Of a DNA stretch of 64,000 nucleotides, positions 7,497 to 64,000 are shown in pieces. Positions within the stretch are counted from its first letter, which is position 1. The number at the start of each line of letters is the position of its first letter. The DNA is taken from NCBI GenBank assembly GCA_963844825.1, contig CAWJPQ010000011.1, positions 215,869-279,868 of the forward strand, given 5' to 3'. The stretch is from an uncultured Gammaproteobacteria bacterium (GTDB lineage Bacteria; Pseudomonadota; Gammaproteobacteria; CAWJPQ01). Made by a program: the position numbers and the translations under genes. Under the pieces are notes generated by a model. That model was given only the letters and a program-made list of their open reading frames with translations, made no database searches and was not told the origin of the DNA.

Positions 7497-7565
7497 CGAA
7501 AGCGGCTATCGATATAGGAGTGGGTAATGTGGATGATGTATATATTGCGACTAATCCAATCATAA

Positions 7566-8453
7566 TCAACGGGATGCACGGACGTACCGGGCAGGATTCA
7601 CGATCTTCCCGTGGCGCAGCACCTCGAAGTGCACATGAGGTCCCGTCGAGCGGCCGGTGCTTCCCATCAACGCAATCTTTTGATTTTTCTTTATTTTTTC
7701 GCCAACCTTGACGAGGATCTTCTCGCAATGGCCGTAGCGCGTGGCATAACCGTTGCCATGGTCGATCTGTACAAGGTTACCATAACCATGATCCCTCCCT
7801 GCAAATACCACCACCCCGGAGGCCACGGCCAGCACCGGGGAGCCCCGCTTGCCTGCGAAATCGATGCCCGGGTGAAAAGAGGGACGGCCCGTGAACGGAT
7901 CGATGCGCCGGCCGAAATACGAGGAGATCCATCCGCCCTTGATGGGCCTGCCGGAGGGGTGCACCTGCTGCTGGAGCTTGTGGTTCATCATCAGGGATTC
8001 AAGCACCGTCAGCTGCTGGGCACGGTCCTCGATGCGCTTGCCGAGGGCGTTCATGGAGCGCAACAGGGTCTTGACGTCCACCGGCTGGGCCGGCAGCGGC
8101 ATGTCCGGGCCGCCTTCGGCCGGCGGATCCTTGAAGTCGAACTCGCCCTTGTCCAGCTTCGCCAGGGAGGTCAGGCGTTGCCCCAAGGCGTCCAGACGGA
8201 TCATATGGGATTGGAGCTGGCCGATGCGCGAGCTCAATGCGTCAAGGCCTTGCTTGGATGACTGGGTGACCTCGGCCAGGGCATGGCGCTCGCGCGCCAC
8301 CTCACCCTTCCACACGTACAGGCCGACCTGGTAGCCTGTGTACAGGAGACTGGCGGAAAAAACGGCCGCCGCCAGCGCCAGCAAGCTGATAAACTTGACC
8401 CGGGTGAGGCAAACCGGCTTTTGGCGGCGTTTGGTGACAACGATGACGTGCAT
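7566..8453 (-). CDS. M23 family metallopeptidase with coiled-coil N-domain (EnvC/NlpD-like murein hydrolase activator)
   Basis: N-terminal TM/signal, then a coiled coil, then an M23 catalytic domain (HPGIDFAG...GYGNLVQIDHGNGYATRYGH). The lpxC-M23-secA neighbourhood is common in gammaproteobacteria. Confidence 0.85.
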   Translation of the reverse strand: MHVIVVTKRRQKPVCLTRVKFISLLALAAAVFSASLLYTGYQVGLYVWKGEVARERHALAEVTQSSKQGLDALSSRIGQLQSHMIRLDALGQRLTSLAKLDKGEFDFKDPPAEGGPDMPLPAQPVDVKTLLRSMNALGKRIEDRAQQLTVLESLMMNHKLQQQVHPSGRPIKGGWISSYFGRRIDPFTGRPSFHPGIDFAGKRGSPVLAVASGVVVFAGRDHGYGNLVQIDHGNGYATRYGHCEKILVKVGEKIKKNQKIALMGSTGRSTGPHVHFEVLRHGKIVNPARYVRASR

Positions 8454-15422: not shown

Positions 15423-16878
15423 TCATATGTGCTTGACTTTCGTATCCGTCGTCGACAGTTGGGCGGGCAGGCGCGCGGCCGCGGCGCCGATGTCCCCCGC
15501 CCCCATGGTCAGCAAGACATCGCCGCCGTGCAGGGCGTCGCGCAGCAAGCCGGGGAGTTGCGCCGCCTCGTCCACGTGGACCGGTGTCACCTTTCCCCAG
15601 GAGCGGATGGCGTTGGTCAGGGCCAGGGCGTCCGCCCCGACCACCGGCGCCTCCCCGGCGGGATAGACATTCAACAGGAACAGCGCATCCACGGCGGACA
15701 GGGTGGCCACGAAATCATTGAACAGGTCCCGGGTCCGGGAATAGCGGTGAGGCTGGAACACCGCCACGATGCGGCGCCCCGGCCAGCCCTGGCGCACCGC
15801 CTGCACGGTCGCGCTTATCTCGCGGGGATGGTGGGCGTAGTCGTCGATCATCAGCACCTCGCCCCGCGCGGTGGCGATCTCGCCGTGCACCTGAAAGCGC
15901 CGGGCGATCCCGCTGAATCCGGCCAGGGCGCGGCGTACCGCCGCATCGGCGACCCCCACCTCGTAGGCGACGGCCATCGCGGCCAGGGCGTTCAGGACAT
16001 TGTGATGGCCCGCCAGGTTGAGGCTCACCTCCAGCGGCTGATCGGACCCGGGGCGGCTGACCTTGAAGCGGGTCAGCGCCTTGTCCTGCACGATGTCGAA
16101 GCCGCGCACGTCCGCATGCTCGTCCAGGCCGTAGGTCAGCACGGGCTTGGAGATCAGGGGCAGGATATTGCGCACCACCGGGTCGTCCAGACATACCACC
16201 GCCAGGCCGTAGAACGGCAGGTGATGGAGGAATTCCACAAAGGTATCCCGCAGGCGGTCGACATCCCCCCCGTAGGTGGCCATGTGATCGGCGTCGATAT
16301 TGGTCACCACCGCCATCATCGGCTGCAGGTGAAGGAAGGAGGCATCGCTCTCATCGGCCTCGGCGACCAGGTACTTGCCGGTGCCCAGGCGGGCATTGCT
16401 GCCCGCGCTGTTGAGCTGCCCGCCGATCACGAAGGTGGGGTCGAGTCCCCTCCTCGGCGAGCAGGCTGGCGATCAGGCTGGTGGTGGTGGTCTTGCCGTG
16501 GGTGCCGGCCACCGCGATGCCGTGCCTGAAGCGCATCAGCTCGGCGAGCATCTCGGCGCGCGGCACCACCGGGATGCGCCGGCGCCGGGCGGCCGCAATC
16601 TCGGGGTTGTTGTGATCCACAGCGGTGGAGCGCACCACCACATCGCAACCTTCCACGTTACGCATGTCGTGGCCGATGGCGATGGGCACGCCCAATCGGC
16701 TCAGGCGGCGCGTCACGGCGTTTTCCTGGATATCCGAGCCGGTCACCACATAGCCCAGATTGGCCAGGACCTCGGCGATGCCGCCCATGCCGGCGCCGCC
16801 GATGCCGACGAAGTGAATGCGGTCGATGCGCCGGCGCGGCAGCCCCCAGGTGGATTGATTATTACGGTCATGGGACAT
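15423..16878 (-). CDS. murC: UDP-N-acetylmuramate--L-alanine ligase MurC, interrupted by a +1 indel near 16431-16445
   Basis: N-terminal part [38 protein letters not shown]...[20 protein letters not shown] (ATG 16878, GAGGA SD) is followed in another frame by [21 protein letters not shown]... (ORF 15423..16430). The shift sits at GAGGAGGGGACTCGACC. Confidence 0.88.
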
Positions 16879-16933
16879 GGGCAAATCCTCATTATCCGGC
16901 AACATGCCGAGTCTCTGGACCCTGGCGCCGACA

Positions 16934-18021
16934 CTAGCCATGGGCCGCCTCCATGCACAGTGATGCAATGCGCTCGGCGGCATCCGGCCTGGCCAGGCCA
17001 TTGGCCGAACAGGCCATATCGATCAGGCGCCGGCGCTGATCGGCGGCGGCGAAGCGCTCGAGCAGCTCCCCGAGGTAGCGGGGCGTCAGCGCCTGCTGCG
17101 ACACCACCAGCGCCGCGCCCGCCTCCACCAGGTGGGCGGCATTGCGGGTCTGATGATCATCCACGGCATGGGGATAGGGCACCAGGATGGCGCCGACCCC
17201 CGCGGCCGCCAGCTCCGCCACGGTCAGCGCCCCCGCCCGGCTGATCACCATGTCGGCCCAGGCGTAGGCCTGCGCCATGTCATCGATGAACGGCTCGATG
17301 CGCCATGCCTCGACCCCGGCCTGGGCGTAACACCGGCGGGTGAATTCCAGATGCCTTTCCCCGGTTTGATGCCAGACCTGGGGGCGGGTTTGGGGGGAAC
17401 CCCGGCCAGGGCCCGGGGCACCACCTCATTCAACGCGCGGGCGCCCAGGCTGCCGCCGATGACCAGCACGCGCAGCGCCCCCTCGCGCCCCGCCATGCGT
17501 TGCCGGGGCGGCTCAAGGGCCGTCAGTGCCGCGCGCACGGGATTGCCCACCACCTGGGCCCCGAACCGGTCGGGGAAGGTCCCCGGGAACGCGGTGAGGA
17601 CACGGGTCGCCAGGCGGGCCAGGAACCGGTTGGTCATGCCCGCCACGGCGTTTTGCTCGTGGACCAGCAGGGGAATGCGCAGCAGCCAGGTGGCGAGGCC
17701 GCCGGGGCCCGCGGCATACCCGCCCATGCCGAGGACCACCATGGGGCGGCGCCGGGCCATGACCGTGACCGCCTGGACCAGCGCCAGGGCGAGCTTGAAC
17801 GGGGCGGTCAGCCAACTGCCAAGGCCCTTGCCGCGCAGCCCGGCCACCGTCAGCCACTCGATGTCCAGCCCCTCCCGGGGCACGACCCGGGCCTCCAGGC
17901 CGCGACGCGTGCCCAGCCATACGATCTGCGCGCCCCGCTCCCGCAGCACCCGGGCCACCGCCAGGGCGGGGAATACGTGCCCGCCGGTGCCGCCCGCCAT
18001 GATCATGATGCGCATCACCAT
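16934..18021 (-). CDS. murG: UDP-GlcNAc:undecaprenyl-PP-MurNAc-pentapeptide GlcNAc transferase MurG, interrupted by indel(s) near 17280-17410
   Basis: N-terminal ORF 17245..18021 ([21 protein letters not shown]...) and C-terminal ORF 16934..17278 ([25 protein letters not shown]...) are in different frames. A G6 homopolymer (TGGGGGGAAC) lies at the junction. Confidence 0.88.
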
Positions 18022-40870: not shown

Positions 40871-42252
40871 CTACTTGAGCAGCAGGAACAGGGCGCCGTT
40901 ACCCCGGCGCACGTTCAGCAACAGGCCGCCGCTCTTCTTGGCCGCCCGGCGCATGTCCGACAGGTCCTTGACCGGATGGCGGTTCACCGAGACGATGACG
41001 TCGTCCTTGCGCAGGCCCGCATCCCACGCCGGGCTGTCATGCTCGACATCGAGCACCTCGATGCCTTCCACTTGCCCGAACAGGGGGTGATCCGCGTCGA
41101 TCGCGCCGAGCTTCGCGCCGGACAGACGCTTATCGATGTCCCCCGCATCCATCTTCTGCGCCTGCGGCTCCCCGATGGCGGCCTTGACCTTGCGCTCCTT
41201 GCCGTTGCGGATGATCTTCAGGTTGATCTGCTGACCGACCCGCATCATGCCGATCTTGTTGCGCAGGTCCGCGGAGTTGGTGACCGGCTTGCCGTCGAGA
41301 GCCACGATCACGTCACCGACCTTCAGGCCGGCCTTGTCCGCCGCCGAGCCCTTGACCACCTGGGCGATCACGGCACCCTCCTGGATATTCTCGATATCAA
41401 AGGCCTTGGCCAGCTCCGGCGTGACATCCTGGATATAGACCCCCAGGTGGCCGCGATGCACCTCGCCGTACTTGCATCAGCTGGGTCATGATATTGCGGG
41501 CCATATTGATGGGGATCGCGAAACCGATGCCCACATTGCCGCCGCTGGGCCCGATGATGGCGGTATTGATGCCCACGAGCTTGACCGCCGAGGATCACCA
41601 GGGCGCCGCCGGAATTTCCCGGATTGATACTGGCGTCAGTCTGGATAAAGTCCTCATACCCCTCGATACCCAGGCCGGTGCGCCCCAGGGCGCTGACGAT
41701 GCCCGAGGTGACCGTCTGACCGAGGCCGAACGGGTTACCGATGGCCACGACGAAATCGCCGACGCGCAATTTGTCCGAATCCGCCATGGGCACGGCGGTC
41801 AGATGCTTGGCATCGATGTGAAGCACCGCGATGTCGCCCTCCGAATCGCTGCCCACTACCTTGGCCTTGAAGTGTCGGCCGTCGCGCAGGGTGACGGTGA
41901 TCTTATCCGCCTTCTTGATGACGTGATAGTTGGTGAGCACGTAACCCTTTTCGGCGTCCACGATCACCCCGGAGCCCAGGCTGCGCTCGACGCGCTCGCG
42001 GGGCTGGTTGGGGACGTCGAAAAAACGCCGGAAGAACGGGTCGTTGAACAGCGGGTTTTCCCGCACCTGGATATGCGTCCGGGAGGAGATATTGACCACC
42101 CCCGGCACCACCTTGCTCACCATCGGGGCCAGGGACGGCAGCGACTCGTTGCCGACCTTGGGCGGCAGCGCGCCGCCCTGGGCCGCCGGCATTGCGAGCA
42201 TCAACACCCCGACGGCGGGGACTATCAGGCGCCAAAGTGATCTTGTGGACAT
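40871..42252 (-). CDS. degP: periplasmic serine endoprotease DegP/MucD (HtrA family, two PDZ domains), interrupted by two indels near 41460-41600
   Basis: ORF 41368..42252 (signal peptide, catalytic triad region, GNSGGAL) and ORF 40871..41461 (PDZ1-PDZ2) are in different frames. The correct continuation ...[23 protein letters not shown]... is visible in a third frame. Confidence 0.85.
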
Positions 42253-42688
42253 GCAACTTTTCTCCTAGGTTTCATCAGTACGGGGAGCACCCGGGCCGCA
42301 TCCGTCATCTACCGCCGCCCCCGCCCTCGCGACGGGCGGGGGGCAAGGCCGCGGCCGGGGTGCCCGATAAGCTCATTACGTATTTTGTTGCTTGACGGCC
42401 GAATAGCCGATTTCTTGTGCACAAACTCCAACCATACCAGATTGGGTGCCACTTGACATGTGAGCCATAGCGATTAATATTTGAGCGCGCCCATAATAAG
42501 GAATGCATGACCCGGTACGCGCCAGTCCGACGCGGCGCAGGCGCCTACCCCTTTAGCTACGGCGTGCAGTACCGTCGCACCCGGCAGTCATTGAACTTAA
42601 TTCCACAAACGGGGACTAAGCTGCAGTACAGCGTACTTGCGCGATAATGCCAAATAATCAGCGGGGGGAGAACAAGAGTCGCGTGACC

Positions 42689-55873: not shown

Positions 55874-57596
55874 ATGCCCGTCCACAACAGCGAGATCGCC
55901 GCCATGTTCGACGAACTGGCCGATCTGCTCGAGATCGAGGGCGCCAACCCGTTTCGTATCCGCGCCTACCGCAACGCCGCACGGGTCATCGGCGGCCAGT
56001 CCACCAGCATGGCGGACCTGCTCAGCAGCGGCCACGACCTCACCCACCTGCCCGGCATAGGCGAGGACCTGGCGGAGAAGATCAAGACCATCGTCGAGAC
56101 CGGCAAGCTGCCCCTGCTCGAGGAGGTCGCCGGGCGGGTGCCGGCCGCCTTGAGCGAGCTGATGCGTATCGAGGGCCTGGGCCCCAAACGGGTCAAGGCC
56201 CTGTACGAGAAGCTGAAGGTCGACAGCGTCGAAGACCTCAAGCGCGCCGCCGAGGGCGGCCGGATTCAGGCGCTGGAGGGCTTCGGCAAGAAGACCGAGG
56301 ATATGATCAAGGCGCGCATCGCCGGCCTCGACGGTGCCGAACAACGCATCACCCTGAACACCGCCGAGGAATTCGCGGCCCCCCTGGCCGATTATCTGCA
56401 CCGCACCAAGGGGGTAAAGAAAGCTCACGATCGCAGGCAGTTTCCGGCGCCGCAAGGAGACGGTGGGCGACCTGGATATCCTCGTGACCGCCTCCAAGAA
56501 CTCCCCGGTGATGGAGCGCTTCACCGGCTACGAGGAGGTCGCCGAGGTCATCTCCCACGGCACGACCCGCTCCACGGTACGCTTGAGGACCGGGCTGCAG
56601 GTGGACCTGCGTGTGGTGCCGGAAGTGAGCTACGGCGCGGCGCTGCACTACTTCACCGGCTCCAGGGCCCACAACATCGCGGTGCGTACCCTGGGGGTCA
56701 AACGCAAGCTCAAGATCAACGAGTACGGGGTGTTCAAGGGCGACAAGCGCATCGCCGGCAAGACCGAGGAGGAAGTCTTCGAGCACGTGGGCCTGCCCTA
56801 CATCGAGCCCGAGCTGCGCGAGGACCGGGGCGAGATCGAGGCGGCGCAGCGCGGCCAATTACCCGACCTCATCACCGTCGACCAGATCCGCGGCGACCTG
56901 CATGCCCATACCAAGGCCACCGACGGGCACCATTCCCTGGCGCAGATGGCCGAGGCCGCCCGGCGCCGGGGATACGAATACCTGGCCATCACCGACCACT
57001 CCCAGCGCGTCACCGTCGCCAACGGCCTGGACAAGCGGCGCCTGCTGCAGCAGCTCAAGGAGATCGACCGCCTCAACGACAAGCTGGACGGCCTGCGCCT
57101 GCTCAAATCCATCGAGGTCGACATCCTGGCGGACGGCACCCTCGACCTGCCCGATGAGGTCCTGGAATCCCTGGATCTGACCGTGTGCTCGGTACACTCC
57201 AAATTCGACCTGCCCCCCAGGAAGCAGACCGAGCGCATCATCCGCGCCATGGACAACCGTCACTTCAATATCCTCGCCCATCCCAGCGGACGGATCCTCA
57301 ACGCGCGCCCCGCCTATGAAGTGGACCTGGAGCGCCTGATGGAGGCGGCCAAAGAGCGAGGGTGCATCTTCGAGGTCAACGGCCAGCCCAAGCGCATGGA
57401 TCTGACGGATACCGCCTGTAAGCTGGCCAAGGACATGGGCCTCAAGGTCGCCATCTCAACCGACGCCCACAGCGCCGAGCAGTTGGACTACATGCGCTAC
57501 GGGGTCTCCCAGGCCCGCCGCGGCTGGCTGGAAAAGGCGGACGTCATCAATACGTATCCCCTGACCAAACTGCTCAAGCAGCTGAAACGCTCATAG
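55874..57596 (+). CDS. polX: DNA polymerase/3'-5' exonuclease PolX (Pol beta-like core + C-terminal PHP domain), interrupted by an indel near 56400-56465
   Basis: N-terminal ORF 55874..~56440 (helix-hairpin-helix motifs, MPVHNSEIAAMFDELADLLEIEGANPFRIRAYRNAARVI) and ORF 56463..57596 (GDLDILV nucleotidyltransferase motif, then PHP His motifs) are in different frames. Confidence 0.85.
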
Positions 57597-57960: not shown

Positions 57961-58311
57961 ATGAGCACGAAACACCCTCTCAACATGATTTCCCAGCTGC
58001 GGCACTGCACGCAGGAGATGATGGCCTCGCTGTCCCACCTGCGAACGACCATCAGCGACGATTTCGCCCGCGAGCTCGACGCCATCTCCAGGAACATCCG
58101 GCACCTGGAGCAGTCCGCCAACCTGCTGCATGTCCAGGTGGAGACGAAAATGATAGAGACGCGATTCACCCCTCCGAAAAGGATATCTCTGCTACTGAAG
58201 GCCTCATTAAACACAGTGGCCGCAACGGGGGCGTGTGGTCGACACCAGCAGGCACGCCGCCACAATCAACAAGGGGGGCATTCCCATGCAACGGATTGGA
58301 AAACAAATTGA
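57961..58311 (+). CDS. hypothetical helical protein (116 aa), translationally coupled to downstream XRE regulator
   Basis: ORF MSTKHPLNMISQLRHCTQEMMASLSHLRTT... has no recognisable family. Its stop at 58311 is 2 nt before the XRE start. Confidence 0.4.
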   Translation: MSTKHPLNMISQLRHCTQEMMASLSHLRTTISDDFARELDAISRNIRHLEQSANLLHVQVETKMIETRFTPPKRISLLLKASLNTVAATGACGRHQQARRHNQQGGHSHATDWKTN

Positions 58312-58312
58312 A

Positions 58313-58546
58313 ATGCTGCGCACACGGCTCGGCATGTCCCAGGGCGACCTCGCCGAGCAGACTCACTTGAGCCATAGCTACGTCAGCAACCTCGAGCAGG
58401 GCAAGGAGATGCCCGACCTGGATGTCCTGCTGCGGATCGCCGTTATTCTCAGGGCCGAACCCTGGCAGATGTTGCTGTCCACCGACAGCGAAAACGCTTC
58501 GCGCCCGGCCCTGCTGGACGAACCGCCCGTGCCCCACCTTCATTGA
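58313..58546 (+). CDS. XRE-family helix-turn-helix transcriptional regulator (Cro/C1-type)
   Basis: MLRTRLGMSQGDLAEQTHLSHSYVSNLEQGKEMPDLDVLLRIAVIL is a classic XRE HTH. Start ATG 58313 or upstream ATG 58286. Confidence 0.75.
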   Translation: MLRTRLGMSQGDLAEQTHLSHSYVSNLEQGKEMPDLDVLLRIAVILRAEPWQMLLSTDSENASRPALLDEPPVPHLH

Positions 58547-58735: not shown

Positions 58736-59353
58736 GTGTCGCTACTCAACCTCCAGGCCCTTCTCGATACCCCGTTGACGACGGACCCGTTCGACTTTGC
58801 CGTGGTACCGCACTTCGTCACGCCGGAGGCCGTGGAGCAGATCCAGGCGGACTTCCCGGATATCCGCCGGGGTGGCAGCTTCCCCCTGTCGTCCCTGGAA
58901 TACGGGCCGAGGTTTGCCGCCCTGGTCGACGAGCTCATGGGCCATGAGACCCGGGAGGCCTTCGCCGAAAAGTTCGCGATGGACCTGAGCGCCCGCCCGG
59001 CCACCTTGACCGTACGGGGCCAATGCCGGGCCAAAGATGGACAGATCCACGTCGACAGCAAGACCAAGCTGATCACGGTCCTGATCTATCTCAACCCGCC
59101 CTGGGTGGCCGACGGCGGCCGCCTGCGGCTGCTGCGCTCCCCCCATGACATCGAAGACATGGTGGCGGAGATCCCTCCCTATCAGGGCACCATGGTGGCG
59201 TTTCGCTGCAGCGAGAACGCCTGGCACGGGCACAAATCCTACGAGGGACAGCGCCGCGCCGTGCAGCTGAACTGGGTGGAGGACGAGACCGCCGCCCGAT
59301 CCGTGGAGCGCCGTCACGGCTGGTCGGCGGCTGTGAAGCGGCTATTCAGCTAG
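58736..59353 (+). CDS. 2OG-Fe(II) oxygenase superfamily protein (prolyl-hydroxylase-like)
   Basis: GTG start with AAGGA SD. HVDSKTKLITVLIYLN...GGRLRLL...WHGH fits the HxD...H iron-binding triad of the family. Confidence 0.7.
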   Translation: MSLLNLQALLDTPLTTDPFDFAVVPHFVTPEAVEQIQADFPDIRRGGSFPLSSLEYGPRFAALVDELMGHETREAFAEKFAMDLSARPATLTVRGQCRAKDGQIHVDSKTKLITVLIYLNPPWVADGGRLRLLRSPHDIEDMVAEIPPYQGTMVAFRCSENAWHGHKSYEGQRRAVQLNWVEDETAARSVERRHGWSAAVKRLFS

Positions 59354-59547
59354 CCCGCCTGCCCACAACCCACGCCGCGTACCGCCGGCCGGCACCCATC
59401 AGCGACGGGATACCCCCAAGCCCGCGCATCACAGCGTTCTCATCCTCCCGGGGCCCCCCGGACACCCGCGGCCGCACCAATCCATAAACACATATCTTTC
59501 GACCACTTGCGCCGCTTAAGCCCGCCATAAGGAAAGTGTAAGAGATC

Positions 59548-59583
59548 TTTAAGGTTCGAGGCGTTTAATAGGCTCCAACGAAG
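59548..59583 (+). promoter_or_regulatory. conserved upstream element A (TTTAAGGTT-N6-GTTTAAT-N1-2-GGyCTCCA-N2-GAAGC) 65 nt before paralog 1
   Basis: Sequence TTTAAGGTTCGAGGCGTTTAATAGGCTCCAACGAAGC. A near-identical element precedes paralog 2 at the same spacing. Confidence 0.5.
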
Positions 59584-59640
59584 CAATTGATGGGATGTAC
59601 CGAAAATTGAACCGGTGATCTTCCATAAAGGAGAGTCGAC

Positions 59641-60198
59641 ATGAACGCAATTACTTACCTCGATGACGAATTGACCGTGAACTTCAACAACCGGATGCTG
59701 CGGGCCACCTCGGCGATGGTACTGGTGGGTACTTTCTTGACGGGCATGTGGGTGGCCCCGGCCTGGATCTGCCTCGCCTCGGTCGCGAGCATCTATCTGA
59801 TGACCTCGGCCATCCTGGACAAAGGTCTGGCGGGCGCAATCCCCGAGGAGGTCGCGGCCGGGCACGGGTCCTCCGCTGAGACAAACGTGGGCAACGCCGG
59901 GCGGGTCGTGCGCGGCGCGGCCGCGGGGGTTGCCCTGGGCGGCGTCCTGGCTGATCCGCTGGTAAGTGCCTATGTGCTGAACGCGGTGGATATCTTCACC
60001 CTCAACACGGTTGGGGTCTATCTTGCCCTCACCGGCATTATCGCCTGGGACCCCATCAACGCCCTGTTCGGTGCGGGGACCAAGGGGGCCGAATCCGCCG
60101 CCCCGGCCCTGCGCCCCGCCGGCGTGGGTGCAGGCACCCTGCCCAATACCGGACGGGTGTCCGAGCCCCAGCCGCAGGGCGACCGCTACGCGGCCTGA
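59641..60198 (+). CDS. inner-membrane protein with two tandem DUF2892-like (YgaP-like) hairpin repeats, paralog 1
   Basis: AAGGAGAG SD. Two internal repeats (...SAILDKGLAGAIPEE / ...TGIIAWDPINALFG) resemble the DUF2892 G-x-CP motif with Cys replaced by Asp. Paralogous to 63163..63666. Confidence 0.6.
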   Translation: MNAITYLDDELTVNFNNRMLRATSAMVLVGTFLTGMWVAPAWICLASVASIYLMTSAILDKGLAGAIPEEVAAGHGSSAETNVGNAGRVVRGAAAGVALGGVLADPLVSAYVLNAVDIFTLNTVGVYLALTGIIAWDPINALFGAGTKGAESAAPALRPAGVGAGTLPNTGRVSEPQPQGDRYAA

Positions 60199-60466
60199 CC
60201 TGAGTACCCAAAGAAGGGGGCGTGCGCGGCTCATGACGCGCACGCCCTTTCCCACGAGAACCGGCGCAAACCCGCCGCCCACCGACGCTCGCCACGACTC
60301 CCCCCTTTCCGTTCGCCGCCCCCGCCGGCCCGCCCATATGGACATGGTCCGACCACTTGATTGAAAATAGAGTCATGGGACCGGGATACCCGCAGTCACC
60401 CGCCAGGGCGCACGCAGGGGTCCGGCGGTCCGCCGCTATTCGAATAACGCACAGGGGAGACAAGGG

Positions 60467-60919
60467 GTGACAACGGCGTCGCGCAAGACCGCCTTATTCC
60501 GCGGCACACTATTGGGCGTATGCCTGCTGGTACCCTCAAGCCCGTCGTGGGCGGAGGCGATGATATTGCCTTTCGTCACAGGCCCGGGGGCCGAGGAATG
60601 CATACAATATATAACCGTGTTCCACCAGCCGTCCGACAAGTACCAGCTCTATACCAGCTGGCTTCAGGGCTACGCCTCCCGGATCGGTCTGGAAGAGGCC
60701 ATCAAACAGGGCCGCATTGTGGACTACCTCAATGGCACGTCCGTCGACGACATGGCGGCATGGCTCAACAACTGGTGCGAGCGCAATCCCTTCAAGTCCT
60801 TTTACCTGGCGGGCGCCGCCTTTATCAAACACGCCAGCGGTGGGGCACCCGTCCCCCAACGAGAAGCCGCCCCATCCAAGGCGAACAACCCGCCCGCCGG
60901 CACCCCTGACGCTCACTGA
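60467..60919 (+). CDS. secreted hypothetical protein
   Basis: 150 aa. Signal peptide ...LLGVCLLVPSSPSWAEA. No recognisable domain. Confidence 0.5.
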   Translation: MTTASRKTALFRGTLLGVCLLVPSSPSWAEAMILPFVTGPGAEECIQYITVFHQPSDKYQLYTSWLQGYASRIGLEEAIKQGRIVDYLNGTSVDDMAAWLNNWCERNPFKSFYLAGAAFIKHASGGAPVPQREAAPSKANNPPAGTPDAH

Positions 60920-61225
60920 CGCCCCGGGGAGGGCCGGCGGGTCCTTCTTCTTCGACAGCGCTAACAGCGGACCCTGTCTCCCCCGCCGCCCTGAAGCGGG
61001 CATTATTTACATATCTTTGCACTTGCCGCGTACAACATTACACGCAAATGGGACATCTTAGTCCCCGCATATATATATGCAATCTCCCTCCCCCAGCCCC
61101 CCGCGCCCCCCGCGGGGGCTTTTTTTTGAGCCCCACCATCAGCGACACCGGTGACACCGGCTGCCGGCCCGGCGGGCGTGGAACAGGGAAAGGGCCTGCC
61201 CGCCGCACGCGACAGGCAGGTAAAA

Positions 61226-61663
61226 TCACAGGTCCAACTCTGCGTCGGAAATGGTTTGATGCAGTTGATGGTAGGCGTCGAGAAAGGATTTTTTAGCGCT
61301 CTCCCACTGGGCGGCGGAACTGTCCGCCAGATCATGGTAGCGCTGAGAGAGCCGATCGCGCTGATCGTGAAGCTTGTTCAACGTCGCACCGGCGCTCTGG
61401 CGGGCAAATTGATTCATGTCCTGCCACTCGTCGTTCATGCGATCTTCGATCTGCTTGACTTGCTCGCTGACGCCATCCAGCGTGACCTTGGCCTTATGCG
61501 CCGCCTCATCCTTCTGGTCGACGCCGGCATGCTCCATCGCAGCGACCGCCTCGTCAATCTGCTTGTCCAGGTCCTGCGCCTCGGCCACGGACAGGGAGGG
61601 AACCGCGATAAAGGCGGCGAATGCCGCGGCGAGTAGGGTTTTATCAAATAGCTTGCGATTCAT
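61226..61663 (-). CDS. periplasmic helical hypothetical protein
   Basis: 145 aa. Signal peptide MNRKLFDKTLLAAAFAAFIAVPSLSVAEA, then a charged helical region. Confidence 0.55.
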   Translation of the reverse strand: MNRKLFDKTLLAAAFAAFIAVPSLSVAEAQDLDKQIDEAVAAMEHAGVDQKDEAAHKAKVTLDGVSEQVKQIEDRMNDEWQDMNQFARQSAGATLNKLHDQRDRLSQRYHDLADSSAAQWESAKKSFLDAYHQLHQTISDAELDL

Positions 61664-61894
61664 CGTTGAGTTGCTTCCTTATTCAATAGCTGCCAGGAGT
61701 GCGCGAGGGACATCGCCCTCACCGCGAACCATCATCAATTATAGCCTCAAATCAGGAAATTATGATCTTCCGCCCAGGTCCGACTAACCCTTTGATTCAA
61801 GTAATCGCCGGCAACCCCTTGGAGGGCTGCAACCGGCGTCAGTCCGCCAACTCTTCCCTGGATCGCCGCCAGTGCCCCTTGCCCAGGTAGCCTA

Positions 61895-62512
61895 TCAGGG
61901 CCAGCTGAAAACAGCGCAGGCACCAGATCCAGGGGACGGGAAACGGCAGGCTGTCATGATAGACATCGACTGGGGCACATGGACAAAGAACGCGAAAGAC
62001 CACGGCCCCGACCCCGACCGCCGCATAACCAGGTGCTCACTGATCCTGCCGGCCTCTCCCAGACGCTGTTCCCGCCGCCACGCCAACCAACTCAGCCACA
62101 GCTGCATGGACAGGAACAGACGCGCAGCCAACCAGCTCCACTTGACGGCGGCGTCGGGAACAGGCAGGAATGCATCCGTGAAGCCGTCCATGGTCACTGC
62201 TTCATGATAGGCGTCCAGCAGGCCGGTAACGAAAAAGCCGGTGCCGATGAACAGGAAGGTGTTCTCCTTCCTGCTGTAATAGCGCACCAGGGCGAGGGCG
62301 CCGACACACAGGGCCAGGACGGTCGCTACGCATTCGAGGAGCGTATGGAGTTGGCCTGAGACGGACCATGCCGTGTGTTTGAGAGGGAAATACACCGCGA
62401 ACAGCACGGCGCACGTTGCCACGTACGCGCCCGCCCTTCGCCTAACGACGCTGAAATTTTTTCCAGACACGGCCAGACAACCACCTACCTGCATCAACCC
62501 AACGAGGCGCAA
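61895..62512 (-). CDS. integral membrane hypothetical protein (possible sensor-domain fragment)
   Basis: 205 aa with ~5 predicted TM helices. No catalytic domain downstream. Confidence 0.4.
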   Translation of the reverse strand: MRLVGLMQVGGCLAVSGKNFSVVRRRAGAYVATCAVLFAVYFPLKHTAWSVSGQLHTLLECVATVLALCVGALALVRYYSRKENTFLFIGTGFFVTGLLDAYHEAVTMDGFTDAFLPVPDAAVKWSWLAARLFLSMQLWLSWLAWRREQRLGEAGRISEHLVMRRSGSGPWSFAFFVHVPQSMSIMTACRFPSPGSGACAVFSWP

Positions 62513-62640
62513 AACACCCGAGCCTTATTCAGCGGCCCCATCGCCCTTATCCAGAGGAGTCACTGACGGTGGCGGCACCGCCGCCCGTTTGTTTACCCCA
62601 AACCGGGCGAGCCGAATCAATAAAATACTATTTTAACTCA

Positions 62641-63003
62641 TCATGTTAAATACATCTCCCGGGGCACCGCCGGGACGGCCTCGCCCTGGCCCAGCACCCG
62701 CCGGGCGAGCATGGCGGGCATCTTCAGCAGGCGCCGGCGCTGCTCCCGGGACAGCTCCGAGACCGGCAGGCCAGGCCCTCGACAATGGCCGTCTTGCCCA
62801 CCCTCGCCTCCCCGAGCAGCACCGGGTTGCGCTTGGTGGCCCGCACCAGCGTCTGTTCCACGGCCCCCGATCTCCTCATCCCGACCGATCGCCGGGTGGA
62901 CCTTGCCCTCCCTGGCCCGTTGGGTGAGACCGCGCCCGAACCGCAGCAGCTGCTTGTAGGCCTCGGCGTCCACCCCCGCCTTCAGGCCTTGCAGGCCCTC
63001 CAT
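62641..63003 (-). pseudogene. ClpB/ClpV-like AAA+ chaperone remnant: part of D1 (Walker A region) joined directly to the start of D2
   Basis: ATG 63003 with AAGGAGG SD gives [45 protein letters not shown]. After a frameshift it reads ...[28 protein letters not shown], then ...[30 protein letters not shown] (D2 start). The ~450 residues between are missing. Confidence 0.6.
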
Positions 63004-63073
63004 CCCGTTTCCTCCTTGATATAAAAAGGGAATTTTTCCCGTTAAGGTTCCCCTAAGCAACGCCTAAGGAGTG

Positions 63074-63109
63074 TTTAAGGTTGACTGTGTTTAATGGTCT
63101 CCAGTGAAG
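63074..63109 (+). promoter_or_regulatory. conserved upstream element B, 61 nt before paralog 2
   Basis: TTTAAGGTTGACTGTGTTTAATGGTCTCCAGTGAAGC matches element A. A further TTAAGGTTC copy lies at 63042..63050. Confidence 0.5.
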
Positions 63110-63162
63110 CGAGGAAAGTGAAGCCACGACTTGCGCCTTCAACTGATACTGGAGATACCGAC

Positions 63163-63666
63163 ATGACATACGCAACCAACATGAATGACACCACATTCAA
63201 CACCACCGGCCGCGTGCTGCGCGCCGCCTCCGGCATCGGCATCGCCTGCATCGCCCTGGCCGGCTACTGGTCACACCCCTGGGCGCTGTTCGCGCTGTTC
63301 ACCGTCAGCGTCTACCTGACAAGCTCGGCCATCGTCGGCAGGGGCCTGTGGGATGCCTTGTTCAAGCCCAGCGCCGATGACGCCGGCAGCAACGTCGCCC
63401 GCGCCGAGCGCGCCGGGCGCGGCCTCACCGCCGGGGTGACCATGGGCACGGTGATCAGCGGCGCCCTGCTGCTCGACCCGGTGGATGTGTTCGTGCTCAT
63501 GCTGGTCGGCGTGTACGCGGGGATGTCCGCCATCACCGGCTGGGACCCGGTCCGCGCCCTGTTCGCCGAGCGCCGCCACACGGCGAACGCCGGCCTGACC
63601 CGCCCCATCCCCGTCACCGTCGGCCAGACCGGCATGGGTCAGGTTGCCGGCAAGAACGCGGCGTAA
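63163..63666 (+). CDS. inner-membrane protein with two tandem DUF2892-like hairpin repeats, paralog 2
   Basis: Start MTYATNMNDTTFNTTGRVLRAAS (ATG 63163, GGAGA SD). Repeats ...SAIVGRGLWDALFK / ...SAITGWDPVRALFA. Collinear with paralog 1. Confidence 0.6.
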   Translation: MTYATNMNDTTFNTTGRVLRAASGIGIACIALAGYWSHPWALFALFTVSVYLTSSAIVGRGLWDALFKPSADDAGSNVARAERAGRGLTAGVTMGTVISGALLLDPVDVFVLMLVGVYAGMSAITGWDPVRALFAERRHTANAGLTRPIPVTVGQTGMGQVAGKNAA

Positions 63667-64000
63667 GCGGCCCACCCTCCCGAGACACAACGTGCACGGC
63701 AACCGCCGTGCACGTTTTCATTTCCCGTCGGGGTGCGCTCCGTGAACAGTGAGGGCAAATCGCCTTCTTCTGCCGCCGCCATGGCGTCCGTAGTTAGACC
63801 TGTCTTTTCGCCCCCCAAAAGCCGCCTCTAAGCGCCATATCGGCGCTCTTTTCAGGCCAATAGCCTTTAAATTCCGCAGCCTGGATAGGTCCGACCCGCC
63901 TTTGCCTTTGATCAACAAGGGCCCTTATCGGCTCAAGTCGTACCCGCCCTTGGCCGATATCGCCCTTTCCCACCCAAGGCCGCCGAGGCCTGTTTGAATC

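Follow-up and report, generated by a model that had tools for sequence, protein, structure and literature searches.

Why two genes for small membrane proteins should carry the same short element in front of them is the question raised by positions 59,548 to 63,666 of a 64,000-nucleotide (nt) stretch of DNA from an uncultured Gammaproteobacteria bacterium (contig CAWJPQ010000011.1), which is analysed here as a whole and called the window. The genes, designated open reading frames (ORFs) A (59641-60198, plus strand) and B (63163-63666, plus strand), were noticed in a preliminary description of this DNA, where the shared element was read as a transcription factor site. The present analysis supports this reading in kind, by the architecture and conservation of a longer repeat array, and indicates with fairly good confidence that each paralog is its own transcription unit under a putative activator-dependent promoter with two tandem boxes of the PmrA/BasR/QseB group.

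ORF A encodes a protein of 185 amino acids (aa) with two predicted YgaP-like (DUF2892) hairpins, four predicted membrane helices, and a W-D-P motif at residues 136-138, and ORF B encodes its 167-aa paralog with the motifs LWDAL and GWDPV. Both the paralogy and the presence of two YgaP-like repeats in each protein, as proposed earlier, are borne out: the proteins are 38% identical over 135 aa (BLASTP E 1e-22), an offset second alignment between them (E 3e-5) points to an internal two-hairpin duplication, and the PF11127 profile (YgaP-like_TM/DUF2892) matches two stretches in each protein above its gathering cutoff of 25.3 bits, with 29.4 bits for ORF A and 28.0 bits for ORF B, each stretch being a putative two-helix hairpin. 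Hydrophobic segments are evident in the 16-sequence alignment of the close family, and an AlphaFold2 model from 16 sequences places helices at residues 3-35, 40-59, 85-104, and 115-134, with a mean predicted local distance difference test score of only 44. According to the charge distribution and the modelled helices, the products are predicted to be small inner-membrane proteins with two YgaP-like hairpins and with both termini inside (N-in/C-in topology).

The replacement of the family Cys by Asp, attributed in the preliminary description to both repeats of both proteins, holds for ORF B (LWDAL and GWDPV) and for the second repeat of ORF A (AWDPI) and fails for the first repeat of ORF A, where no such motif is present. 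W-D-P is invariant across the close-family alignment of 16 sequences, and W-C-P stands at this column in two distant relatives only (P0019 and P0021). That Cys-Pro after the second helix is a feature of PF11127 was taken from the preliminary description. In comparison with PF11127 the family differs in carrying two tandem copies of the domain and neither a rhodanese nor any other soluble domain, in Asp-Pro in place of the usual Cys-Pro in most members, and in a C-terminal Ala-Ala, which is considered below. The ORF A orthologs are 52-94% identical, and the protein P0001 is 95% identical to that of ORF B. The whole clade is very small: when 1.84 billion cluster representatives were searched exhaustively with the profile, only 62 reached E < 1e-3, and 17 reached E < 1e-10; the family profile had no match among the PDB sequences.

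The shared 37-nt element, TTTAAGGTT-N6-GTTTAAT-NGNCTCCA-NN-GAAGC, occurs only at 59548-59584 and 63074-63110 in the window with up to three mismatches allowed, and no match was found in 100 shuffled sequences, so that its presence in both upstream regions is confirmed. It is the 3' half of a promoter module of about 70 bp, which begins with an array of four direct hexamers separated by 5-bp spacers. Array A (59515-59553, plus strand) consists of CTTAAG (59515-59520), CATAAG (59526-59531), TGTAAG (59537-59542), and TTTAAG (59548-59553), and array B (63041-63079, plus strand) consists of GTTAAG (63041-63046), CCTAAG (63052-63057), CCTAAG (63063-63068), and TTTAAG (63074-63079). The TAAG cores stand exactly 11 bp apart, at 59517, 59528, 59539, and 59550 in A and at 63043, 63054, 63065, and 63076 in B. 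The pattern TAAG-N7-TAAG was found six times in the window against 0.08 expected, all within the two arrays, and the four-core array with up to two mismatches was found twice in the window and never in 30 shuffles. Without gaps the two promoters are identical at 47 of 71 positions, in contrast to 22 of the next 71 nt upstream. The sole other TAAK-N7-TAAK in the window (7552-7566, TAATCCAATCATAAT) lies just 5' of secA and is at chance level (0.45 expected).

This architecture changes several details of the preliminary description. The repeat unit proposed there, TTTAA(G/T)GGT at a 16-bp offset, is replaced by a hexamer with an invariant TAAG core, present four times at an 11-bp phase; the array starts 31-32 bp 5' of the coordinates given earlier, and two more TAAG copies in each region had been missed. 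From the extra TTAAGG copies, that at 63042 reads TTAAGGTT, while that at 59516 reads TTAAG-CC and is not TTAAGG. The distances from the element to the start codon are 56 nt (A) and 52 nt (B) instead of 65 and 61 nt, the difference of 4 nt having been given correctly. Finally, the GTTTAAT and CTCCA of the shared element are more likely a -10 element and a discriminator plus start site, respectively; the 37-nt element would then join the fourth half-site to the -10, to the discriminator and start site, and to the beginning of the leader.

The candidate -10 of promoter A is TTTAAT (59564-59569, plus strand), located 10 bp after the fourth hexamer and atypical in having T instead of A at position 2; that of promoter B is the same hexamer at 63090-63095 on the plus strand. 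They are followed by AGGCTCC-A-ACGAAGC (59570-59584) and GGTCTCC-A-GTGAAGC (63096-63110), both on the plus strand, in which the discriminator, the putative start (A 59577 and A 63103), and the beginning of the leader would be joined. The predicted 5' leaders are 64 nt (59577-59640) for ORF A and 60 nt (63103-63162) for ORF B, on the plus strand in both cases, with the Shine-Dalgarno sequence GGAG at 59630-59633 and 63151-63154, respectively. In a scan of the regions upstream of ORF A and ORF B no canonical sigma-70 promoter (-35/-10 pair) was found. Each ORF is followed by a hairpin, GC-rich and likely a terminator after ORF A (60218-60247) and terminator-like after ORF B (63689-63716, plus strand). 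An in-frame ATG inside TTTAATGG of promoter B would lengthen ORF B by 23 residues (63094-63162; 760-828 in the related locus L133); since this frame is lost in another related locus, L001, and GGAG precedes the annotated start, position 63163 is preferred as the start of ORF B.

The conserved bases downstream of the candidate -10 could also be thought to act in RNA, with GGyCTCCA-NN-GAAGC serving as an anti-Shine-Dalgarno segment or a riboswitch-like leader that controls translation. Indeed, TCTCCAG(T) could pair in all six B-lineage sequences with (A)CTGGAGA, a segment containing the Shine-Dalgarno sequence; in promoter B of the window the complementary segments are TCTCCAGT and, at the ribosome-binding site, ACTGGAGA, and in the related locus L007 they are TAGCCGA and TCGGCTA, the latter directly 5' of the Shine-Dalgarno sequence. 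This pairing, however, requires transcription to start at or before the base after TTnAAT, which leaves no plausible -10, and the A lineage can pair over 4 bp only (CTCC/GGAG). The folds of the leaders are not more stable than those of shuffled sequences (z from -1.5 to +1.8 with two possible starts; -0.56 for the ORF A leader), RNAalifold on six B leaders gave no compensatory pairs and an unfavourable covariation term, and a change in L140 breaks one pair without compensation. Rfam 15 gave no match at gathering score anywhere in the region and, for 59300-63800, none at E <= 1 in either leader. As the four phased upstream repeats are also left unexplained, control at the RNA level is considered quite unlikely.

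The promoter reading is further supported by comparison of related loci, which were collected by exact-protein look-up and pattern scans (L001-L007, L130, L133, L140-L142, and L143/L144) and provided 16 family promoters: six A-type, six B-type, two of a further paralog B2, and two from L143. All 16 align in one architecture with no gaps, even where protein identity is about 35-45%; it runs hexamer-N5 four times, TT, 7 nt, T(T/G)nAAT, and a further 7 nt with a pyrimidine-A at their end. The TAAG core is kept in 63 of 64 units, flanking positions carrying less than 0.45 bits; the outer repeats are always TTAAG, and the hexamer types along the module are xTTAAG, CCTAAG, xxTAAG, and TTTAAG. The distance from the end of the proximal box to T(T/G)nAAT is 10 bp in 16/16, and a pyrimidine-A stands 7 nt past the -10 candidate in 15/16 (C-C in the remaining one). 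Averaged over columns, identity amounts to 0.82 for the array and 0.94 for the -10 candidate, but to 0.45 immediately upstream. The window promoters have four repeats, and those of relatives have four to six.

The limits of conservation are equally sharp. Similarity between genomes in blastn starts at repeat 1, namely, at 59516 for A (L003, L004, and L005) and at 63032-63036 for B (L133 and L001), and stops just past the terminator-like hairpins, at 60253 for A (L004 and L005) and at 63715-63725 for B (L133 and L001). According to these boundaries each paralog forms a self-contained unit of promoter, leader of about 60 nt, ORF, and terminator. Such sharply bounded units, found in differing contexts in each genome, beside pseudogene fragments and near a transposase in L001, might also be regarded as the residue of a duplication or as a mobile cassette, with the repeats being transposon ends or a recombination site of no regulatory role. 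Against this, the conservation is position-specific across 16 promoters whose proteins are about 35-45% identical (TAAG in 63 of 64 units, spacers free), and the keeping of core and phase along with the loss of the spacers contradicts a neutral residue. Moreover, neither terminal inverted repeats nor target duplications flank the units, no homolog of the family was found on plasmids, and the array never departs from the coding strand or from its set distance to the start-codon region. A residue or mobile element is thus hardly credible. Regulation by the array is preferred, and a promoter nearly unchanged while its proteins diverged to about 35-45% identity would imply a tight and ancient tie to one two-component system.

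The half-sites of the array resemble those of a known group of regulators. The pmra-box is defined as two XTTAAY hexamers with a 5-bp gap in place of the -35, located 4 bp further downstream than the PhoB box, which extends from -41 to -25 (bioRxiv 10.1101/2022.07.20.500760). In Klebsiella the PmrA half-sites are CTTAAT and CCTAAG, bound head to tail, and the Salmonella half-site is CTTAAG (PMC3973317), while the Acinetobacter PmrA site is TTTAAG-N5-TTTAAG (PMC10927774). The window promoters contain direct-orientation xTTAA(G/T)/CCTAAG hexamers at 5-bp gaps, as in the PmrA/BasR box, and array B (GTTAAG-N5-CCTAAG-N5-CCTAAG-N5-TTTAAG) can be read as a tandem of two PmrA-type boxes. With the conserved A (59577 or 63103) as the start of transcription, the proximal box would lie at about -40 to -24, which by analogy is the class II position, as for PhoB and for PmrA inside its activation complex.

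Other recognition systems fit less well. The Pho box, built of CTGTCAT-type 7-bp direct repeats, was not found, the core here being TAAG. By eye, the spacings of sigma-54, sigma-E, PvdS, and other extracytoplasmic function sigma factors do not fit, and none of these explains four phased repeats; the -10 of sigma-28 (GCCGATAA) is present in L007 only.

A link to a regulator gene is given by the distant lineage of L143, where 640-2284 (also in L144) contains P0020 (185 aa) and a 96-aa single-hairpin relative, each with a four-hexamer promoter. A gene of an OmpR-family regulator lies 120 nt past these family genes, with the best matches to PmrA (NCBIfam E 2.6e-42) and BasR (PDB E 5e-31) and further matches to RppA, TctD, and QseB. 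A scan of the genome collection with the four-repeat pattern gave at least 119 stretches, mostly AT-rich 11-mer tandem repeats or unrelated arrays; among the matches listed, a like array of five repeats is placed in L090, an unrelated genome of high GC content, 55 nt 5' of an operon for a BasR/PmrA-like regulator and a kinase, and arrays in L093 and L078 are upstream of OmpR-family regulator genes. Also among the matches listed are imperfect four-repeat TTAAG arrays at 11-bp phase in Bacteroidota (L039, L074, L106, and L119 with an efflux pump of the resistance-nodulation-division (RND) type; L053 and L069 with a TolC-like gene), just 5' of heavy-metal-type RND efflux and outer-membrane factor genes, and imperfect four-repeat TTAAG arrays before ABC transporter (ABC ATPase) genes in Bacillaceae (L020 and L063). 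A TTAAG half-site at 11-bp phase may be in wide use by OmpR-family regulators, as these sequences suggest.

The array might instead be bound by a regulator outside the OmpR/PhoB group, such as an XRE-type helix-turn-helix (HTH) protein (58235-58546), a LytTR or an AraC-type protein, or be the operator of a repressor over a promoter in which repeat 4 (TAAGnT) is the -10. The XRE gene, two genes 5' of A, and a gene of a 2-oxoglutarate-Fe(II) oxygenase precede A not only in the window but also in L002-L005; repeat 4 reads TAAG(G/A/C)T and fits TAnnnT in 15 of 16 promoters; and some HTH repressors bind direct repeats, as described for the P2 C repressor. However, no XRE gene adjoins the array at the B, B2, and L143 promoters, XRE proteins are normally palindrome binders, and TAAGnT as a -10 would put (A/C)TAAG(G/C) at the -35, which matches TTGACA poorly. 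The layout itself, in which hexamers follow one another head to tail four to six times in exact 11-bp phase and an AT-rich hexamer stands 10 bp from the proximal one, is that of OmpR/PhoB class II sites, and it is an OmpR-family regulator that is linked to the family in L143. These alternatives are therefore judged unlikely.

In the preferred reading, activation through tandem PmrA-group boxes, a dimer of the phosphorylated regulator, probably two dimers, would bind the array and contact the sigma-70 RNA polymerase, offsetting the missing -35 and the weak -10 (TTnAAT), and transcription would start at the conserved A, 7 nt 3' of the -10. Given the common promoter, both genes, and in relatives the third paralog lineage as well, would switch on together according to the signal of the sensor kinase.

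Several observations weigh against this reading. The -10 candidate has no A at position 2 in any of the 16 promoters (T or G instead), which is unusual for sigma-70, and as a consequence the start site, and with it the placement at -40 to -24, can only be inferred. The linkage to a PmrA-like gene was seen in one distant lineage only, where the contig stops within the regulator gene, before any kinase gene is reached; in the window, reading the translations by eye brought up neither a regulator gene nor one for a kinase. The matches listed from the genome-collection scan do not include the source species, and a scan of Joint Genome Institute (JGI) metagenomes with the strict pattern (three repeats and the -10) returned 13 stretches, among which two were relevant (L130, the A ortholog, and L133, the B ortholog), and revealed no regulon beyond the A/B orthologs. 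Likeness of half-sites cannot separate PmrA from QseB, TctD, and RppA, nor activation from repression.

The C-termini of the encoded proteins are also of note. Among the family proteins (P0001-P0073), Ala-Ala stands at the end of 28 of 29 close members and of 26 of 47 distant ones, whereas in the window the products of 2 of 47 genes end in this way; it is encoded at 60193-60198 in ORF A and at 63661-63666 in ORF B, and the 30-40 residues preceding it are poorly conserved. This nearly invariant end looks like an ssrA-type C-terminal degron and suggests rapid turnover by ClpXP or FtsH. In the predicted N-in/C-in topology it would face the cytoplasm, and with rapid turnover the protein level would track promoter activity. 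The likeness to the ssrA tag (-LAA) and to RseA 1-108 (-VAA) consists in Ala-Ala after a poorly conserved tail in nearly all close members, and the difference is that the residue before Ala-Ala is mostly charged or polar (R, H, K, D, Y, N), not Leu or Val. Family-wide occurrence of this end suggests regulated proteolysis of a membrane protein.

Between the paralogs, the inventory of the preliminary description (secreted, helical, polytopic membrane, and clpB-like genes) proved correct. A signal-peptide protein of 150 aa with no family match (60467-60919, plus strand) has no TAAG array of its own; it is followed by a 145-aa helical signal-peptide protein (61226-61663, minus strand), which has a weak sub-threshold match to the sll1863 stress-protein family (E 1.5e-5, 25.2 bits against a cutoff of 35). 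The 205-aa truncated MASE3 sensor domain (61895-62512, minus strand) is what is left of a MASE3-PAS-GGDEF diguanylate cyclase, of which L002 has the intact form of 707 aa: comparison of window 61859-62512 with L002 7080-9203 indicates that the N-terminal 205 aa are kept and about 1.48 kb is missing in the window. Lastly, a frameshifted ClpB/ClpA-like fragment (62641-63060, minus strand), with GRDEEI and a second motif in different frames, is a pseudogene remnant that ends about 20 nt from array B and is absent upstream of B in L133 and L001.

Relatives help to place these genes in order. Downstream of A, the gene order of the window recurs in L002, with 94% identity between the two. In L004 (3745-4380) and L005 (5839-6479) the paralog B2, lacking in the window and L002, is located directly after A with its own array of five to six repeats, and the ortholog of the secreted protein follows the A-B2 tandem (L005 6763-7203). 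With an identity of 52-57% to the B clade, as compared with 60-79% between the members of that clade, B2 represents a third lineage. The orthologs of window B in L133 and L001 are downstream of a GGDEF-EAL gene, and the upstream boundary of window B is a breakpoint adjoining the clpB fragment. By these comparisons the region is rearranged and decaying, not an island inserted into a tandem pair. From the two layouts suggested earlier, a duplicated cassette or a rearranged accessory region, what stands is a pair of diverged duplicates in a rearranged region, and the inserted island is contradicted by the gene order shared with L002.

Some further observations were made in this region. The contig end of L002 (9410-9449) passes from its match to window position 62691 straight into the interior of ORF B (63231-63270, 100% over 40 nt), so that the first 68 nt of B are left out together with its promoter and the clpB fragment; this may be a strain deletion or an assembly chimera. 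Cyclic di-GMP genes (GGDEF, EAL, and MASE3-PAS-GGDEF) recur beside the family genes (L001 17-883 and 2150-3193; L133 145-648; L005 7441-7824; window 61895-62512), possibly by chance in genomes rich in them. A 30-nt imperfect inverted repeat (60303-60332/61165-61194, 77% complementary) flanks the secreted-protein gene and may be a chance feature of GC-rich DNA. The window includes secA, lpxC, the dcw cluster, the RNase P RNA, sspAB, lptAB, and similar genes, a content that suggests a gammaproteobacterium of 65% GC. Several housekeeping genes (murC-like, degP/Q-like, and PolX/PHP) are split across frames (15423-17022, 40871-42264, and 55874-57596); PolX is intact (573 aa) in L002, and the split genes point to assembly frameshift errors or real pseudogenes.

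In summary, the promoter would be an ordinary case, though one not described before, of a kind of gene control that is already known, and current understanding is not overturned by it. It provides a regulon prediction for a tiny, uncharacterised DUF2892 clade and a natural case of two to three tandem PmrA-type boxes, useful for the study of cooperative binding outside enteric bacteria.

Compared with the known PmrA box promoters (pbgP/arnB, ugd, and pmrC of Salmonella, Klebsiella, E. coli, and Acinetobacter), the family promoters share, as read from the sequence, the TTAAG/TTAAT/CCTAAG hexamers, the 5-bp gaps that give an 11-bp period, and the head-to-tail orientation, and their array would likewise take the place of the sigma-70 -35; the TAA core is the part contacted by protein in PmrA sites, and it is within the TAAG core that is conserved here. 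They differ in having four to six half-sites, which make two or three boxes instead of one, in the invariant final G, where published sites allow G or T, in the proximal box, which would be about 3 bp further upstream in a PhoB-like position, in the atypical -10, and in their targets, which are DUF2892-like membrane proteins and not lipopolysaccharide-modification enzymes. With PhoB promoters the likeness lies in the class II geometry (-41 to -25 for PhoB, a predicted -40 to -24 here) and in the tandem 11-bp units upstream, and the difference lies in the half-site, CTGTCAT for PhoB and TTAAG here. Four or more 11-bp units are used by PhoP of B. subtilis, TorR, and ArcA.

MgrB, acting on PhoQ, PmrR, acting on LpxT, SafA, and MzrA are small proteins of the inner membrane that feed back on two-component systems; an OmpR-family regulator acts directly on their promoters, and some of them are encoded beside the system. 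ORF A and ORF B have no sequence relationship to these proteins; the likeness would be that of small membrane proteins under a putative OmpR-family-type promoter, and a feedback role here is speculation by analogy. As a tentative and rather doubtful proposal, the tandem YgaP-like proteins would be short-lived accessories of a PmrA/QseB-like system, induced through the double box, inserted beside the sensor kinase, modulating it or a membrane target in the manner of MgrB, PmrR, and SafA, with their membrane-proximal Asp perhaps binding a cation, and cleared through their degron, so that the whole would work as a pulse or feedback module.

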